In this document: piece after piece, positions 7,601 to 28,600 of the stretch
Position numbering within the stretch: the stretch's first letter is position 1
How the letters are laid out: the number at the start of each line of letters is the position of its first letter
NCBI GenBank assembly: GCA_044070495.1
Contig: JBIPSI010000003.1
Location: 32,001-96,000, forward strand
Reading direction: 5' to 3'
DNA length: 64,000 nt
Origin: Spirulina sp.
Lineage (GTDB): Bacteria; Cyanobacteriota; Cyanobacteriia; Phormidesmidales; Phormidesmidaceae
Made by a program: the position numbers

Positions 7601-10600
7601 CTGGTTCGATCCCAGCATGGCCCGTACCTCAAAGCCCTTGCATTGCAAGGGCTTTGCTGTTTAAGGGTAGATTTTTGGCCCTTGCAAACTCCCCTCTGTT
7701 CCCCGTATGATCCCCAGTAAATCACACTAAATCACACTAGAAATGGGGGCAGAATGGGGAACGGTGGGGACGCCTTAATGGAGTCCGTAGCGGCAGCAAA
7801 CGAGCGATTACGGGCAGCAGGAGTGCCTGTCCGCCTTAGGGTTCATCGAAAATCGCTCTACCTACGGTGTAGTAAACTGCCCCCCAAGCCGGGGCATCAG
7901 CCAGGGCATCGCTACGAATTGTCTCAGGGGCCGCTCTGTGAACCCGCGATTCGTCGTGCGGAGGCGCAGGCCTACGCGATTCGGACGGCCCTGGTCGAAC
8001 GGCGTTTTTCCTGGGAAGAGTTTGACCCCAACCATAAGGCTCCGAGTAACAGCGTGGCGGACTGGGTAGAGAAGCTGAAGGAGCAGCACCTTTCCACGGG
8101 GCAATGCTCATCCCAGACCTGGGCTAAGCACTGGGAGGGAGCTGTTTTCTCAAAGCTGCCCCAGGACACCACGCTTACAGCATCGGTAATCCTCGCGGCT
8201 GTCCTAGAGACAAAGGAGAATACTCGCAGCCGTAGGCGAACTTGTCAGGCTTTGAGCCGATTAGCTGAAATAGCAGGGATTGAGATAGACCTACGCCCCT
8301 ACCAGGGCCGCTATGGGCTCAATAAGGTTGGACGGCGTGACCTACCGACCGACCAACAGATCGAAGATTGGTACACCGCGATTGGATCCGCACCGTGGCG
8401 GATTATTTTTGCTCGCCTAGTCGTCTTTGGGCTACGGCCCAGTGAGGCTTTTCAGTTTGAACTGATCGATCCCTATACGGCGCGTGTGGTGGATGCCAAA
8501 GCAGGGGTTATCAGGGAGACGAAAGCCTTTCATCCGCACTGGGCGGATCGTTGGCCTCTGGTGGGCGACGTTCCCAAGGTAACGTGGCGAGAGGCGTATA
8601 AAGCTAAAGACTTAACCGAGCGAATCAGGACTGGGCTTAAGCGGTGGGGTGTGACCTGCCAGCGTTATGACCTGCGCCATGCCTGGTGTGTTCGGGTGAG
8701 CGTAGAGTATAAGATTCCGACTTCATTAGCGGCAAGATGGGCTGGGCACTCGGAGGCCGTCCATAATGCGACCTACCTTCAGTGGATTAGAGCAGACCAG
8801 GCCGAGGCCGTTTATCGGGATATGGCCTTGGGCTATGCCGCCAAGCAACAACCTGATCCACTCCATACGTCACAGTGATTACAGAGCAGCCATCTGGCGG
8901 CTTCGATTCTTACTTTCCGAGAATGATCGCTTGGCGTCACTGCTGAGGTTGCCCCACCAGTCCCACAGTTCCTTACAGCGACCAACATGGTACTCGTAGC
9001 GGGGAGTCGTCTTGCTTCCAACATTGCGAATGGCTCCCTCCTGTTCAGTGAACAGGCCGTTATTCCGCCATACCTCTGGCCATCGCGGGGATTGCTTCAT
9101 CAGCCGAGCGAGTTCCCGACCCTTGACCCAACGAGTCACCATCAACTGCTGGCGCAGAGCGGCCAGCTCTGCCCTTAACTCAGCAGACTCTAGTTGGATT
9201 GCATCCAGCTTATTCATGATTTGCTGAATGTCGCTAACCATGCTAACCATGACTACTGTTTCTTATTGTTGATAACTGTAAGTATCCCGCAATACGTAGC
9301 GCGGGTCAATCACCTGCGAATCTTGCCCAATCTCAGTGGGGGCGAGGGAAGTGAAAAAAATACTGCCCACGATTCCTTGACCGTGGGCAGTGGAGCGCTC
9401 TTGGCTCTGGGGTTGATGGGAGCGAAACCTTCTGCTGGTTTACGGTGTGGGTCGCTAGCCATCAATCTGAAGCGGCACTAGTAGGAAGTGATCGCTGATG
9501 TGACAGTCCTGTATGGCGACTTCAATGAGGTTTGGCCCCATGTTTAGCCGCTCAATCATGTCATCGACTTCATCGTCGGTGCAGAGTGGTGACGTTCCAT
9601 CGTTGGTCGCAATAGCAGTCAGTTCTGGAATTTGCCCCCGTGGCCCACCCATCTCTTGCCATAGCCGCAAGGCGGCAATCATCGTATGGACATCAGCATC
9701 GTTCATTTCAACACCTCTTACAAACTGAACTTGAACCAGACTAAGGGCGGGTTCAACTCCCGCCCTACTTCTAGGCCATCAACCAAAGGCCAAGCTATGG
9801 CTAGGTTCAGATGGCCTGGATCGACCATTCTTGATCTCCAACCCCTTTGCAATAGCCTCATCACAGACCTCGGTGACGATAGTTTCATTGCTGAGGTTGG
9901 CAATGGTCTGGAATGTTGCTAGCAAGGCTTCGTAGCTTTGGTGAGCGACTAACACCAGATTGGCTTCGAGGTCGTGTTGAAGCACAGTAATCTCTGGAAT
10001 GTTGAGTGGCTCGATGCTGCCATAGCCGCTAGCAAGGTCTTCAACATCAACATCTAGGGAACCCCGCGAGTCGTGATAAAGCTGTAGGGCGGCTCGGATG
10101 GTGGCTAGGCGGCGGTCAGAGAGAGCGCCAGGACTCCTAGGCTCAGGATTCATCCGGGCCTGTGCGAGGGCACAGGTAAGCTGGCGGCTATTCGGGTCGA
10201 TGACGCCGGAGGCAATAGCTTGAGCGATGCTGAGAACCATTTCAAAGTCACCCGTAATCGGGATGACCATGCCGCCGCCGCGCACCCGATAGAACACTTG
10301 ACCGTCAATCTGTAGCGCTGAGATGGTGGCTGGGCAAGCATTGCTGTTTCGCGCACGGAAATTGGCTAGACCTTGCCAGAGGCAATAGAGTGGTTTGGCA
10401 CTGTTTGCCCACTCGCCGCCAGTATCCAGTACGCGCTGGCGGTGGTGAGCCAGCAAGTCTATCCCACTGTGGTCTTGACCGATATGGTTGCAGGATACGT
10501 TTGTCATTGTGTGACCTCTCATGAACTGAACTTGAACCAGGCCAGGGACGGGAGTCGAACCCGCCCTACTCCCACTGGCAATTACACATCGGACTCAATA

Positions 10601-25600: not shown

Positions 25601-28600
25601 TCTTGGTTTTCAGAAAATAGAACAGGCATGATGTGACCTCTGAACATGAACTGAAACAGGCCAGGGGCGGGAGTCGAACCCACCCTGCTCCAACTGGCTT
25701 ATTGAGCGAGATGGCGGATCTGCTGGTCGGAAACCTGCTGTTTGAGTAGGTTGACGGCCTCCATGACACCCTCCAGGAGGGACAGGATTTGGTCGCATCG
25801 TCCTTCCGTGAGTTCTTCCAGTTGTCCAGGTGTCATCGTGATGGCAGTGATGGCTTGGCCAGCGCTCTTAACCTGGCCTTCCAGCTTTAGCCATCGCTTC
25901 ACCACGGTGGGGTCTTCAATGTCGAACCCAAACCCGGCCTGCTCAACTTCGGGAGCATTCAGGACAGCTACGGCCCGCTTGAGCCGATCATGGGAGTTGT
26001 CGATCTTGCCCGTGCGGATCATGTCCCACAGCTTTTGCTGCCTCTCAGGCACCACCTGAGTCATGTAGAACGCTTGCAGCTTGGTCAGATCTCCGCGATT
26101 GAACGCTTCCTGAGCATCGGGGCAGAGTTGCAGGAGGGCCAACCGCTCGTTGATCCGAAAGACCTCTTTGCCCAGGAATTTAGCTAGCTCCTTCTTGTCT
26201 GCGAAGTAACCCTCATCCAGCATGTACTGGTAGCCCAGGGCTTCTTCCATGGGTGTCATGTCCTTGCGGGCCAGGTTTTCGAGCATGGCCAAGGCCATGA
26301 TGATCGAGTCTGGCACTGGCGATCCATCCACACAGCCCGTTTCGAGGCAGGCCACTTCAACCAGTTCAGCGAGGGCACAGGCCCGCCACCGCCGCTCACC
26401 TGCAATGATCATGCCGTTCGGGGTAATCGTGATGGGCTGAAGTAAATTGTTCTCGCGGATACTTCCGGCTAGCTCGGCCAGAGCTTCGCGGTCGAAATGC
26501 TTGCGCGGTTGATCCGGGTTAGGGAACACATCGCTGTGCTGCTTGGTTTTGAGCTGCTGATAGATTTCAATGCCTTTGACCTTGAAATAACGGGCACCGA
26601 CTCGGCGGGGCTTTTTAGATTCCGCAGGCTTTTTCGCCCTAGGTTGTCGAACCTTGGCTGACGCTGTCATGGCGTGACCTCTTGAAATGAACTGAACCAG
26701 GCCAGGGGCGGGAGTCGAACCCGCCCTACTCCCACTGGCAATTAACCGAGAACTCGAACTTCGATAACGTCTTGCCCCTTGAAGGCTTTACGGCAAGCGG
26801 CCTTGGCTGCGGTGAAGGTGCCGTTAAAGTCAAACTCAACGTTGCCATCAAACGTTTGAACGACGAACATCCAGAAGCCTTGCCCTTTGGGCTGGCGGAG
26901 ATAAGTGCTGAAAAAGTCGGACGTGTTGAAAGGCATGGTTTGGGCCTCTTTTGGGTGGTTTTTAACTACATTTATATAATACATCGGAGCCGTCTTAAAG
27001 TACAGTGTATTGCGTAAAGTTAATACTGAAAAAGCCCGTCCTGCAAGGGTTTTGCGGGACGGGCTTTAGTTGAGTGCGGGATATTCAGAATAGGCTGAGT
27101 TGGGTTTTCGCCTCCCTTAGCTGAGTCTCGATGTCTCGGCCAATTGTGGCTTCAAACAGTTGGCCTGTGCTTTGTTCCCATCCTGGGCAGGTAACAATCT
27201 CGCCGTCCTGGGTGCGGAAGCCTTCGGGCACCTCGATGCCTAGCTCGGACTCTAGCCAGTTGGCGGCAAGCCGTCGATGGCAAAAGTCGGTGGGTTTCTC
27301 GAAGCAAAGCAGGATGGGCCGAACCGTGGCGACCTCTGATTCTGGTAGACCTAGGCTGCGGGCCTGTTCCTGGGCGATGTGGCATAAATCTTGATACACC
27401 TGCTGAGCATCTAGCCCTTGCAGAATTTCCATGTAGAGCGGGATGTACTCTTCGACAGAGGCCGACCGATACCAGGGGCCAGGGGCCAGGGCGCGGTAGC
27501 TGGGATACTTGCCATTGGCCCAGCGGGGCTGACTCCGACTGATGCAGATTGCGCCAGGGGTGGCAGGTGGTGTCTTGCCGTAATAACTCGTCAACATGTG
27601 TGACCTCTCTTGCGTGAGTCGCGCCAACGACGGTTGAAGTCTCGCCGCTTGGCGTCGTTGTACTTTTTGAAAGCTGCTCTGGATGCGGCCAGGGCTTGGG
27701 TTAGCCGCCTTGGTTCACCCGCCGCTATCGCAAACTGATATTCACGTTCACTGTCTAGGTATGCTTGCTTTAGCCGCTCTAGGCTGTCCATGAGGCTGAT
27801 TTGGAACTATATCTAATTCTAACACGAAATACCCTTAAGTGCTTGCTGTGCAAGGGTTTCAGGGATTAGTATTGCGCTTTAGGGATTTAGTGTATCCTGT
27901 ATGAAGATATGCGGCGACTCTGAGAGGGCACCTGCGACCTGTAGGTGTTGGGGCTCATCACCCCTAGCCGCTCCAAGCTTTTGGTTATGCCGTTTTTTGG
28001 AACAGTCCCCGGCAAGTGCGTTGAGCAGGTTATTGGCGTCGTCCCCTTCAAGGAATGGCCTGCAATTTATGTTTGCTGCTCTGGGACATTTCGCATTGAG
28101 CAAGCCCTAACCCAGGCGCTTGGCTCTGGTGCGCCCATCTATAGCAATGACGTGAGCTTATACAGTTCGGTGCTGGGCGCTTGGCTGACAGATCGCCCCT
28201 TTGCCCTTACCTTCCAGGACGAGTTGGCCTTTGTCCAGGAGCGATTTAACGAAGACTTTTGTGCAGGGGTTGCCTCGGTGCTGGTGGCCCATGAGATGAG
28301 CCGTTTCGTGCGGAACAATGACTACAGTCGCCAGATGTTTGGCTACTATGTCGAACACTTCGAGATGTTCCACGAAAAGGCGATCACCAAGCTCGGCCAC
28401 CTCAAGGAAACCGTCAGCATTCGCGACTACCGGGCGAGGGACTGGCGGGAGCATGTCGATGAAGCGATTGCCCAGGGTGCAGGCATTGCCGCGTTCCCGC
28501 CCTTCATCATGGGCGATTACGAAAAGCAGTACGCCTTTCTAGATCGATGCGTCACCTGGCCAGCCCCCGCCTACGCACTATACGACCCATCCCAACTAGA

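Follow-up and report, generated by a model that had tools for sequence, protein, structure and literature searches.

In animal mitochondria, where tRNAs punctuate the transcripts, and in the case of MALAT1 and NEAT1 with their mascRNA, RNase P and RNase Z are drawn to a tRNA, or a mimic of one, that sits within a long transcript, and the cuts make the ends of the flanking RNAs. RNase P is known to accept a bulged hairpin of acceptor stem and T-arm as a minimal substrate (the model substrate pATSer), and the enzyme also cuts some intercistronic regions, as in the his, tna and rbs operon mRNAs of E. coli. In plant mitochondria, mRNA ends are formed where so-called t-elements guide the cuts of RNase Z and RNase P: the extremities of t-elements coincide with the 5' and 3' ends of mRNAs, real tRNAs serve likewise at other genes, and some t-elements lie inside the end of a reading frame (PMC1920247). 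RNase Z cuts just past the discriminator of CCA-less tRNAs (PMC8549757). Among viral RNAs, a catalogue derived from IMG/VR counts 10,006 candidate structured RNAs (csRNAs), with unnamed candidates just 5' of capsid genes (DNAVirus_3706, 73 cases) and of psbA (DNAVirus_5620, 16 cases) (PMC10690425).

We describe here a short hairpin, called minihelix below, that is repeated in a prophage of Spirulina sp. and that sequence comparison supports as a conserved sense-strand mimic of the acceptor/T-arm half of tRNA. The genome-wide survey's note had presented it as tRNA-like punctuation between the early genes of this prophage, an interpretation that is partly supported by our analysis. The conserved GGU of the bulge, the U at position 74, a second hairpin, a tRNA in phage NATL1A-7 and the overlap of stop codons with the 5' strand are new.

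The minihelix copies of the prophage

The window analysed is a stretch of 64,000 nucleotides that holds the early genes of the prophage. Six near-identical copies of 40 nt (mean column identity 96%) lie on the sense strand of these genes, and we recovered all six where the survey had placed them (Table 1). The spacing that it gave also holds, with a stop codon 0 to 2 nt upstream (58 nt once) and an ATG 29 or 32 nt downstream. A pattern of bulge, loop and spacer matches six times in the window versus 0 in 100 shuffles, and in the whole 5.3-Mb genome the covariance models R1 and R2 find these six as the only full-length copies, again as claimed. ARAGORN calls none of the six a tRNA and Rfam holds no family that matches them, in line with the earlier statement that they are neither; nor did literature searches yield a description of the minihelix.

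The repeated unit is larger than the hairpin: about 75 nt, comprising hairpin, conserved spacer, Shine-Dalgarno sequence and ATG (repeat family D1). Since the 96% identity of the six copies runs on through the spacer, cassette duplication or gene conversion fits it too. A degenerate seventh copy keeps the lower stem, the upper stem, the spacer and the position at the boundary, its bulge is shortened to AAGTA with loss of the GG, and its upper stem-loop is inverted, the loop AGTTGAA being the reverse complement of the T-loop. Together with a copy at 4631 of locus L043, upstream of RadC, the seventh copy (at 9735) makes two inverted-loop copies that still stand at gene boundaries; perhaps these two no longer function, or perhaps function does not need the loop.

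Table 1. Features of the prophage early region, in window coordinates
Feature	Position	Strand	Context
Minihelix copy 1	26700..26739	(-)	2 nt past TAA of 64-aa leader ORF; 29 nt 5' of ParB-like ATG
75-nt cassette of copy 1	26665-26739		
Minihelix copy 2	25659..25698	(-)	0 nt past ParB TAA; 29 nt 5' of RadC-like ATG
Minihelix copy 3	24856..24895	(-)	2 nt past RadC TAA; 32 nt 5' of DUF3560 ATG
Minihelix copy 4	23841..23880	(-)	58 nt past DUF3560 TAA; 29 nt 5' of ATG of 118-aa ORF
Minihelix copy 5	21933..21972	(-)	2 nt past TAA of short leader ORF; 29 nt 5' of LPD29-protein ATG
Minihelix copy 6	10540..10579	(-)	2 nt past TAA of 97-aa ORF; 32 nt 5' of ATG of 242-aa ORF
Degenerate seventh copy	9735..9776	(-)	2 nt past TGA of ORF 9779-10507; 5' of ATG at 9706; repeat family D6
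ParB-like gene	25699-26670		Downstream of copy 1
RadC-like gene	24898-25629		Downstream of copy 2
DUF3560 gene	23939-24823		Downstream of copy 3
118-aa ORF	23455-23811		Downstream of copy 4
Short leader ORF	21975-22190		Upstream of copy 5
LPD29 protein gene (711 aa)	19768-21903		Downstream of copy 5
97-aa ORF	10582-10875		Upstream of copy 6
242-aa ORF	9779-10507		Downstream of copy 6
Repeated cassette A1	26919..27052	(-)	Heads transcription unit 1; repeat families D3-D5, D7
Repeated cassette A2	22116..22249	(-)	Same kind as A1; heads transcription unit 2
Repeated cassette A3	10858..10971	(-)	Same kind as A1; heads transcription unit 3
Perfect hairpin GGCCAGGG-ACGG-CCCTGGCC	23908..23929	(-)	Between DUF3560 stop and minihelix copy 4

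Cassette A1 has three parts, namely a terminator-like hairpin, an A/T-rich block that is conserved (TCCGATGTATTATATAAATGTAG) and a Shine-Dalgarno sequence, and a minihelix occupies the first gene boundary downstream of it. The A/T-rich block is a putative promoter or operator; a consensus scan did not call the cassette. At orthologous junctions in relatives of the same genus, we found a terminator-plus-promoter cassette followed by the same spacer and Shine-Dalgarno module, with no minihelix, so that the place of the minihelix is taken there by a transcription start. The 3' end of the minihelix recurs in the arms of the perfect hairpin ahead of copy 4. At the edge of the prophage is a tRNA-Arg.

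Fold, spread and siting of the family

The minimum-energy fold of the 40-mer is the one that the survey had proposed, a helix of 5+7 bp in which 8 nt bulge out and 7 nt form the loop; it makes up 93% of the ensemble at -21.6 kcal/mol, with a z of -2.19. Its parts are an acceptor-like stem of 5 bp, a bulge with GGU, a 7-bp stem and a canonical T-loop. The pattern used to search viral sequences fixes bulge, loop and the top 3 bp only and leaves the lower stem free; each part was also left free in turn, and none of the alignments was fitted to a model. In the ungapped, unfiltered alignment of 90 distinct 40-mers, 87.9% of cells pair (67.7% in shuffles), and the covariation score is 0.516 against 0.150 in shuffles, none of 500 of which reaches it, and 0.10-0.15 in slid controls. 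Two-sided changes occur at all five lower pairs and at the three free upper pairs; both stems thus covary, which upholds the proposed acceptor/T-arm mimicry. When the bulge is left free, GGU is kept in 18 of 18 matches. When the loop and 6 of the 7 upper pairs are left free, all 25 stem-forming sequences carry UUCGAYU closed by the G53-C61 pair, in agreement with the T-loop invariants named earlier, and only two other sequences pair at 5 of 6 positions with a different loop. The GGU resembles the D-loop. The likeness to tRNA is not complete: the helix has 5+7 bp versus 7+5 in tRNA, and the GGU, 7 bp from the loop, is preceded by just 2 nt of bulge, by geometric estimate too few to let it touch the T-loop, so that a real elbow may not form.

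The survey had listed 13 contigs outside the genus; the family is widespread and far larger, and the element is not peculiar to this prophage or genus. In IMG/VR, 90 of 121 pattern matches (85 of 116 loci) form all five lower and at least six of the seven upper pairs, and 55 distinct sequences across the 85 viral loci share one architecture. Minihelices are found in marine T7-like cyanophages, where they precede psbA and the genes of major capsid proteins; in a Corynebacterium genome; and, among cultured phages, in NATL2A-133 and the mycobacteriophages MyraDee, Odin and Journey13. Most phages have a single copy (65 strong matches in 59 loci, with more than one only in L081 and L089). The same pattern gives at least 117 loci in cellular genomes, and among the matches listed 88 are true tRNAs and only 6 are minihelices: the minihelix is enriched in phages. 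In the same order, 8 matches of 39-53 bits fall in 7 of 150 other genomes; all belong to the same genus, as the survey had reported, while its tally of 9 in 7 of 122 genomes differs from ours. The prophage copies are a local six-fold expansion of a widespread, apparently uncatalogued phage RNA family. None of five well-studied cyanophages in one set, and none of three in another, carries a minihelix, which is thus not required for psbA or capsid expression.

The family is oriented with respect to genes. Coding on the sense strand exceeds that on the antisense strand in 36 of 43 loci, and G-U outnumber A-C combinations by 21 to 5 in sequences with at most two non-Watson-Crick cells. The mirrored pattern with flipped loop matches only four times; these matches, which form 0 to 3 of the 5 lower pairs, are antisense tRNAs by eye, and none is a minihelix. 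A stop codon of a same-strand ORF lies at -10 to +15 in 33 of 43 unique viral contexts (8.0% of random positions), which bears out the siting at gene boundaries, and a same-strand start lies 0-170 nt downstream in 35 of the 43 (36.5% by chance); among the genes that follow are psbA, in 4 loci, and, in 10, that of the T7-like major capsid protein. The idea of punctuation between cistrons stands as far as gene boundaries are concerned, but not as solely intercistronic, since minihelices also occur in 5' leaders of other phages. Of the 33 viral minihelices that have a stop codon next to them, 20 share nucleotides with it in their 5' strand. Position -1 shows no preference.

Proposed processing and its alternatives

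The sequence that follows the helix, which lies outside the search pattern, resembles the trailer of a pre-tRNA: of 58 sequences, 35 have A at position 73 and 48 have U at position 74. No CCA follows the minihelix. The survey had counted this as an objection, which loses its force because the tRNA genes of the host are alike: in 33 of 36 a T follows the discriminator, and in one a CCA. The Spirulina host encodes RNase Z (373.9 bits, above cut-off) and RNase P RNA (253.6 bits). Six related contigs have a minihelix at a site that is taken, in cyanophage NATL1A-7, by an annotated tRNA-Gly; both end in N73 and UU, after which come the same conserved hairpin and the 5' UTR of the capsid gene. At this site, the minihelix is interchangeable with a real tRNA. 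More generally, a second hairpin begins 0-2 nt past position 74 in 48 of 72 contexts, so that a cut after N73 would leave a 5'-terminal hairpin; the single-stranded A/U linker between the two hairpins would also suit RNase E.

How might such an element act? We are inclined, though not strongly, to regard it as a signal derived from tRNA that brings RNase Z, RNase P or both to phage mRNA and so punctuates it. Transcribed within the sense mRNA, the folded minihelix would be seen by the host as the top half of a precursor tRNA, and tRNA-maturation endonucleases would cut the polycistronic transcript at its edges. The likeliest cut would be by RNase Z, between the discriminator and U74; the 5' edge may be cut too, by RNase P. 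The overlap of stop codons with the 5' strand argues for the 3'-side cut rather than for RNase P only, as a cut by RNase P would strip the upstream message of its stop codon. The downstream gene would gain a defined 5' end, in the prophage a conserved 29-32-nt leader with Shine-Dalgarno sequence and in most other phages a hairpin 1-3 nt from the cut, and the upstream message would keep a stable tRNA-like 3' end. If this is true, long phage messages are split into separate units by host enzymes that trim tRNAs.

The hairpin could instead remain uncleaved, as an insulator of each translation start against the reading frame upstream, a block to exonucleases or a dock for a factor that reads the T-arm or elbow, such as the ribosome, or TruB/TrmA as chaperones. 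The fixed 29-32 nt to the start codon with its conserved spacer and Shine-Dalgarno sequence, the stability of -21.6 kcal/mol, the location 5' of highly expressed genes and the stops overlapping the 5' strand, which oblige a terminating ribosome to open the hairpin, all speak for such a role. We nevertheless hold it to be rather unlikely: a plain GC hairpin would do, yet T-loop, G53-C61, GGU and U74 are all conserved, a real tRNA can replace the minihelix, and most phages show no fixed distance to the start codon. Less probable is a released small RNA of about 40 nt, perhaps CCA-tailed, acting in trans as a regulator, or drawing off, as decoy or sponge, the defences or enzymes of the host that target tRNA, with mRNA cuts as a by-product. 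Loci L046-L050 of the same genus do resemble a stand-alone small-RNA unit, in which a TTGACA promoter of consensus sequence and a leader precede the minihelix and a terminator-like hairpin with U-rich tail follows it; six copies would give a high dose; and neighbours are often of anti-restriction kind (ParB, RadC, DUF3560 and LPD29 in the prophage, an anti-restriction-like gene and a methyltransferase in NATL2A-133, an ArdA-like gene in MyraDee). However, an RNA that lacks the anticodon arm is no decoy for anticodon nucleases, and action in trans needs no tight link to stops and downstream starts.

We give still less credit to a role at the DNA level, in which the 75-nt repeats would be boundaries that promote recombination and gene shuffling, as PeSL do in T4-type phages (PMC2839356, PMC4122927), or sites for single-stranded DNA or protein binding, for instance by the ParB-like protein. 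Besides the PeSL precedent, it would account for the high within-genome identity reaching past the hairpin, the variable presence at orthologous junctions, the post-element segments repeated in L081 as well and the two stem-loop inversions, a DNA-level event. Against it are the strand asymmetry (G-U 21 versus A-C 5, no minihelix among the flipped-loop matches), the sense orientation to genes in 36 of 43 loci, the single copy of most phages and a pairing kept by covariation while the sequence changes; shuffling may be a side effect of several copies. A signal to transcription in the nascent RNA (attenuator, terminator, or processive antiterminator of nut/put type) is quite improbable. Stable hairpins do occur in the nascent RNA of early operons, with copies early in each of the three transcription units, but no U-tract follows them, the terminator scan calls no copy, minihelices also precede late genes in T7-like phages, and the conservation of T-loop, GGU and U74 and the tRNA swap would be left unexplained. 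Finally, tRNA 3' ends are common in phage attachment sites, and this, with the tRNA resemblance and the tRNA-Arg at the prophage edge, might suggest functionless remnants of tRNA genes or of tRNA-derived attachment sites. This is the reading to which we give least weight, and it is very unlikely because random decay would lose the pairing: through many compensatory changes the 5' strand stays complementary to the 3' acceptor strand, 55 distinct sequences at 85 viral loci keep one architecture, six copies stand in one operon, and on inspection the minihelix has no likeness to the T-arm of the tRNA-Arg.

Comparison with known systems

The text of the csRNA catalogue, in the portions available, makes no mention of a T-arm minihelix, which may be among its unnamed candidates; by their description, DNAVirus_3706 and DNAVirus_5620 lie at most 25 bp from the gene, and the minihelix further upstream (PMC10690425). 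Like the minihelices, the PeSL of T4-type phages, which are mobile regulatory cassettes linked with modular shuffling, are repeated intergenic stem-loop units of about 70 nt between small early genes; a PeSL, however, is a terminator plus an early promoter (PMC2839356, PMC4122927). The minihelix lacks a U-tract, leaves no space for a promoter 5' of the Shine-Dalgarno sequence, and has a tRNA T-loop.

The RNase P sites of E. coli operons are not conserved tRNA mimics, unlike the minihelix, and the minihelix substrates used as models for RNase P are artificial. Mitochondrial tRNA punctuation and mascRNA are eukaryotic or organellar and involve full cloverleaf-like folds; the phage minihelix belongs to bacterial phage mRNAs and has the top half of the tRNA only. 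The t-elements share with it a T-arm of the GGTTCRANYCC motif and an acceptor-like stem within mRNAs, and they are imperfect cloverleaves of about 74 nt, few and organelle-specific (PMC1920247). In contrast, the minihelix is a uniform 40 nt with one bulge, for which we infer processing, and it forms a covarying family in phages of at least two bacterial phyla.

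Copies of the minihelix and its cassettes in the window

The six copies of the minihelix, a 40-nt acceptor/T-arm-like hairpin of the prophage's early operon, were all recovered on the minus strand where the genome-wide survey's note had placed them (see table), and two covariance models agree with it that the 5.3-Mb genome holds no further full-length copy. Compared column by column, the six are 96% identical, and a pattern combining bulge, loop and spacer matches six times in the window versus never in 100 shuffles. The fold proposed in the note also held: stems of 5 bp and 7 bp with an 8-nt bulge between them and a 7-nt loop on top; its energy is -21.6 kcal/mol, with 93% of the ensemble and a z of -2.19. 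Upstream ORFs have their stop codon 0 to 2 nt before the copies (58 nt for the one starting at 23841), and 29 or 32 nt separate the helix from the next ATG. The names given to the flanking genes stand (ParB_N+HTH_ParB, RadC, DUF3560, LPD29), and the prophage status is supported by the major head and tail sheath proteins encoded downstream.

What the note had missed is that the actual repeat unit is a 75-nt cassette, comprising in this order the hairpin and then a conserved spacer with a Shine-Dalgarno sequence (SD), CTGGTTCAGTTCA..AAGAGGTCACnnCATG. There is also a seventh copy, in which the upper stem-loop is inverted, so that the loop reads AGTTGAA, and GG is gone from the bulge. Inversion of the 7-bp stem and its loop is found in two independent copies, this one and one in L043, a locus of the same genus; in both, the loop reads as the reverse complement of the T-loop, exactly or nearly so. 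An inversion in place of this kind is what template switching at a short palindrome would give.

A second cassette, of 119 nt, is present in three copies. Each contains a terminator-like hairpin (for example AAAGCCCGTCC..GGACGGGCTTTTT), a conserved A/T-rich block, TCCGATGTATTATATAAATGTAG, and an SD, and each heads one transcription unit, in which a short ORF and then the minihelix follow. The conserved block is also present in the relatives L043 and L045. This cassette is probably an early promoter or operator of the phage, a role read from its sequence only, as a simple consensus scan called no sigma-70 promoter or terminator in any of the three copies.

Two further features of the window are recorded here. 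Directly past the DUF3560 stop codon lies a perfect 8-bp hairpin, GGCCAGGG-ACGG-CCCTGGCC, made of the sequence of the minihelix 3' end; in L043, a similar hairpin of 10 bp lies between RadC and DUF3560. At the expected integrase site, adjoining tRNA-Arg, a 374-aa ORF gave no Pfam match at E<=0.001 and no PHROG match at E<=1e-5.

Positions of minihelix copies and of the features observed around them, in the window's own numbering or that of the locus named
Feature	Locus	Position	Strand	Remark
Minihelix copy	window	26700-26739	minus	
Minihelix copy	window	25659-25698	minus	
Minihelix copy	window	24856-24895	minus	
Minihelix copy	window	23841-23880	minus	
Minihelix copy	window	21933-21972	minus	
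Minihelix copy	window	10540-10579	minus	
Seventh copy	window	9735-9776	minus	2 nt after TGA; spacer as in the others
119-nt cassette	window	26919-27052	minus (sense)	
119-nt cassette	window	22116-22249	minus (sense)	
119-nt cassette	window	10858-10971	minus (sense)	
Perfect 8-bp hairpin	window	23908-23929		
374-aa ORF	window	7754-8878	plus	
tRNA-Arg	window	7552-7624		
Anti-restriction or entry-type neighbours	window	19768-26670		
Inverted copy	L043	4631-4670		
True tRNA	L081	1934-2009	minus	61.7 bits
Glutamine-II match	L074	3005-3057		
Glutamine-II match	L083	2063-2115		
Glutamine-II match	L087	4216-4298		
Glutamine-II match	L091	1971-2041		
Glutamine-II match	L063	675-726		
Neighbours in NATL2A-133	L292	2142-3136		
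ArdA-like protein in MyraDee	L293	3455-3994		
T-arm-like hairpin, Streptococcus phages	L294	~1195-1230		

Structure of the element and competing identities

Each part of the structure was left free in turn. The pattern used to search IMG/VR, GGNGYAGNNNGGGTTCGAYTCCC, fixes only the bulge, the loop and three top pairs; the lower stem is absent from it, and its pairing is a free outcome. All five lower pairs and at least six of the seven upper pairs were nevertheless formed in 90 of 121 matches (85 of 116 loci; 55 distinct sequences). When all 90 distinct 40-mers were aligned without gaps or filtering, anchored by the pattern and with no model fitting, 87.9% of cells pair versus 67.7% in shuffles, and the covariation score was 0.516, which none of 500 shuffles reached, versus 0.150 when shuffled (slid partners gave 0.10 to 0.15). 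Changes on both sides affect all five lower pairs and the three free upper pairs; 8 of the 12 pairs covary.

With the bulge left free at 5 to 12 nt, GGU was kept in 18 of 18 matches (AUGGUGCA, GAUGGUCGCA, CACGGUAUCAG and AAUGGUUGUU are examples); in sequence, it resembles the G18-G19-U20 core of the tRNA D-loop. With the loop free and just one of the seven upper pairs fixed, a further pattern returned 61 distinct sequences. The stem forms in 25 of these, and every one of the 25 has UUCGAYU closed by G-C; 34 others lack the stem, and the remaining two pair at 5 of 6 positions with a different loop. In tRNA numbering, the element thus carries the G53, T54, T55, C56, R57, A58 and C61 of a T-arm. 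Of 58 cases, 35 have A at position 73, the discriminator, and 48 have U at position 74, with no CCA after it. As in a t-element, a T-arm motif and an acceptor-like stem, predicted to stack over about 12 bp (5+7), lie inside a presumed mRNA.

The element also has a strand. G-U cells outnumber A-C cells by 21 to 5, with a binomial p of 0.0025 that serves as a guide only because the sequences are related. A mirrored pattern with the loop inverted retrieved four loci, all read as antisense tRNAs and none with the minihelix fold (0 to 3 of the 5 lower pairs). A binding site for ParB is rejected on account of this strand asymmetry.

Several known classes of element were considered as alternatives. 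A canonical tRNA, a cloverleaf with D-arm, anticodon arm and anticodon, does not fit: the element is 40 nt long, ARAGORN calls no copy, and the Rfam tRNA model gives no hit on the copies. Among Rfam 15 families, only the T-arms of tRNA-Sec and tmRNA gave partial, sub-threshold matches; a tmRNA tRNA-like domain, part of a tmRNA with a tag reading frame, is opposed by the ARAGORN search for tRNA and tmRNA, which found no tmRNA in the window. An intrinsic terminator requires a GC hairpin and a U-tract: none of the six copies is called as one, and the helix is followed by CUGGUUCAGUUCA. The gap from helix to ATG, SD included, is too short (29 to 32 nt) for a promoter-terminator cassette of the PeSL type, and no promoter-like site was called there. 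Upstream of psbA, neither PhotoRC nor another Rfam motif matched at the element. A remnant of the neighbouring tRNA-Arg or of an attachment site is rejected as well: the element is unlike that tRNA, it exists in several copies, and its 5' strand is paired.

Matches in Streptococcus phages are T-arm-like fragments without the bulge and were left out of the member count. In phage P7952 and its relatives, such a hairpin, CAGGGGTTCGACTCCCTTG, lies in a non-coding stretch and has no GGU bulge; a tRNA fragment from an attachment site is one possibility for it, a distant relative of the element another. We conclude that the element mimics, as a conserved sense-strand RNA, the acceptor/T-arm half of tRNA. 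As far as searched, no publication describes a T-arm minihelix between phage cistrons; it may be one of the candidates left unnamed in the IMG/VR csRNA catalogue (PMC10690425).

Distribution and genomic setting

The element's family is large and phage-borne. In IMG/VR, the pattern GGNGYAGNNNGGGTTCGAYTCCC matched at 117 loci; the search patterns capture only some of the family, and related sequences raise this and the other counts. Only 9 of 122 viral pattern matches are contained in ARAGORN tRNAs, and R2, a covariance model of the element, gave 65 matches of at least 49.9 bits in 59 of 80 flank-bearing loci. One viral contig (L081) has six copies within 5 kb, as does the window, and another (L089) has two. 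A true tRNA on L081 shares the strand of the six-minihelix array and follows it at a distance of about 2 kb downstream. For the same pattern in 185,579 cellular genomes, the matches listed (117 loci) comprise 88 true tRNAs, 23 others and 6 minihelices, the latter labelled Nodosilinea or Leptolyngbya in five cases and Corynebacterium phoceense in one. Within the host's order, 150 other genomes gave 8 hits of 39 to 53 bits; these fall in 7 genomes, each belonging to the same genus as the host.

An initial viral scan that required the window's spacer as well was empty, which indicates that the spacer is lineage-specific. Against cultured phages, blastn of two stretches of 120 to 190 nt found no match at default stringency; relaxed blastn led to cyanophage NATL2A-133 (60.9 bits) and three mycobacteriophages, MyraDee (41.2 bits), Odin and Journey13, all of which carry the element. 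It is therefore easily testable, since its mycobacteriophage carriers grow on M. smegmatis. Among phages with published transcriptomes, it is absent from five of five (Syn9, S-PM2, P-SSM2, P-TIM40, S-CAM1) and from three of three (S-CBP4, P-SSP7, NATL1A-7).

With ORFs defined by a crude longest-ORF rule, a same-strand ORF ends between -10 and +15 of the element in 33 of 43 unique viral contexts, versus 8.0% of random positions, and one starts at most 170 nt downstream in 35 of 43, versus 36.5%. The stop codon overlaps the element in 20 of those 33, where it is often the TGA within cUGAu. Among the genes downstream are psbA (4 loci) and a T7-like major capsid protein (10 loci), and among those upstream an RlpA-like DPBB protein and Kyano_Gp96. 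A second hairpin starts 0 to 2 nt after position 74 in 48 of 72 contexts; the window copies have an unstructured spacer in its place.

In five loci of the same genus (L046-L050), the element does not come after a stop codon; it is situated in a leader that a consensus TTGACA promoter precedes. The unit reaches from about 200 nt before the element to 100 nt after it. This promoter, with its -10 box, is followed by a leader of 75 to 150 nt that is conserved and structured, and then by the minihelix; next come a GCCCC-N10-GGGGC hairpin whose tail is U-rich, an SD, and an ORF whose N-terminus is hydrophobic (124 aa in L048). The unit matched no Rfam family and resembles one for a small RNA or a leader.

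Other neighbours were also noted. Five T7-like cyanophage contigs have Glutamine-II riboswitch matches, two of them over the gathering score, on the same strand as the minihelix and mostly a few hundred nucleotides from it; the one in L074 precedes the capsid gene and is about 120 nt upstream of the element. Genes of anti-restriction or entry kind adjoin the element in the window (ParB-like, RadC, DUF3560, LPD29), in NATL2A-133 (an anti-restriction-like protein and a DNA methyltransferase) and in MyraDee, where an ArdA-like protein is encoded two genes downstream.

Relation to tRNA and possible role in mRNA processing

The element is probably a descendant of tRNA genes. At one site, it interchanges with a real tRNA: directly upstream of the capsid gene, phage NATL1A-7 has an annotated tRNA-Gly and six related contigs have the minihelix, both trailed by N73, UU, a common conserved hairpin and a common capsid leader. 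In the relatives L043 and L045, the orthologous junctions carry a terminator, a promoter and the common spacer/SD module without the minihelix, and the L043 junction ahead of RadC has the copy with an inverted loop. The host encodes RNase Z and RNase P RNA; among its 36 tRNA genes, T follows the discriminator in 33 and CCA in only one, a pattern that the element's U74 and missing CCA match.

Which function could such a mimic have? RNase Z prefers U74, and minihelices are classical RNase P substrates. Pellegrini et al. (2003) reportedly dealt with RNase Z and CCA-less tRNAs. The most economical proposal, to which we incline by a small degree, is that the element recruits tRNA-maturation endonucleases which would cut the mRNA, by analogy with plant mitochondrial t-elements, for which mRNA cutting by this route has been shown (PMC1920247). 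RNase Z, cutting on the 3' side, would be favoured for four reasons: U74 is present and CCA absent, the new 5' end would be formed by the hairpin or short leader, the product would be equivalent to the promoter-driven leaders of relatives, and an RNase P cut would remove the stop codons that lie in the 5' strand. RNase P may act as an additional or alternative cutter.

A broader proposal, for which we would give slightly less than even chances, is that phages of several bacterial phyla use a portable 'mini-pre-tRNA' to punctuate their mRNAs, and some full-length tRNA genes likewise. This would hijack the enzymes that mature the tRNAs of the host, namely RNase Z, RNase P and perhaps the CCA-adding enzyme, to yield punctuated polycistronic mRNAs. 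By extension, some phage tRNA genes, such as the tRNA-Gly of NATL1A-7, may be kept at least partly for mRNA processing and not for decoding.

Its function aside, the element is a well-defined RNA motif with strong covariation support that is absent from Rfam. If the cuts are real, phages would have a further reason to carry tRNA genes, host RNase Z and RNase P would join the factors that shape phage gene expression, in the ocean also that of psbA and capsid genes of cyanophages, and engineered operons would gain a compact, natural 40-nt part for cistron separation. Punctuation of mRNA guided by tRNA is known from organelles and from a few eukaryotic long RNAs; real cuts would make it a common strategy of bacterial viruses too, and the 'mini-pre-tRNA', if it exists, would be their counterpart of mitochondrial tRNA punctuation.
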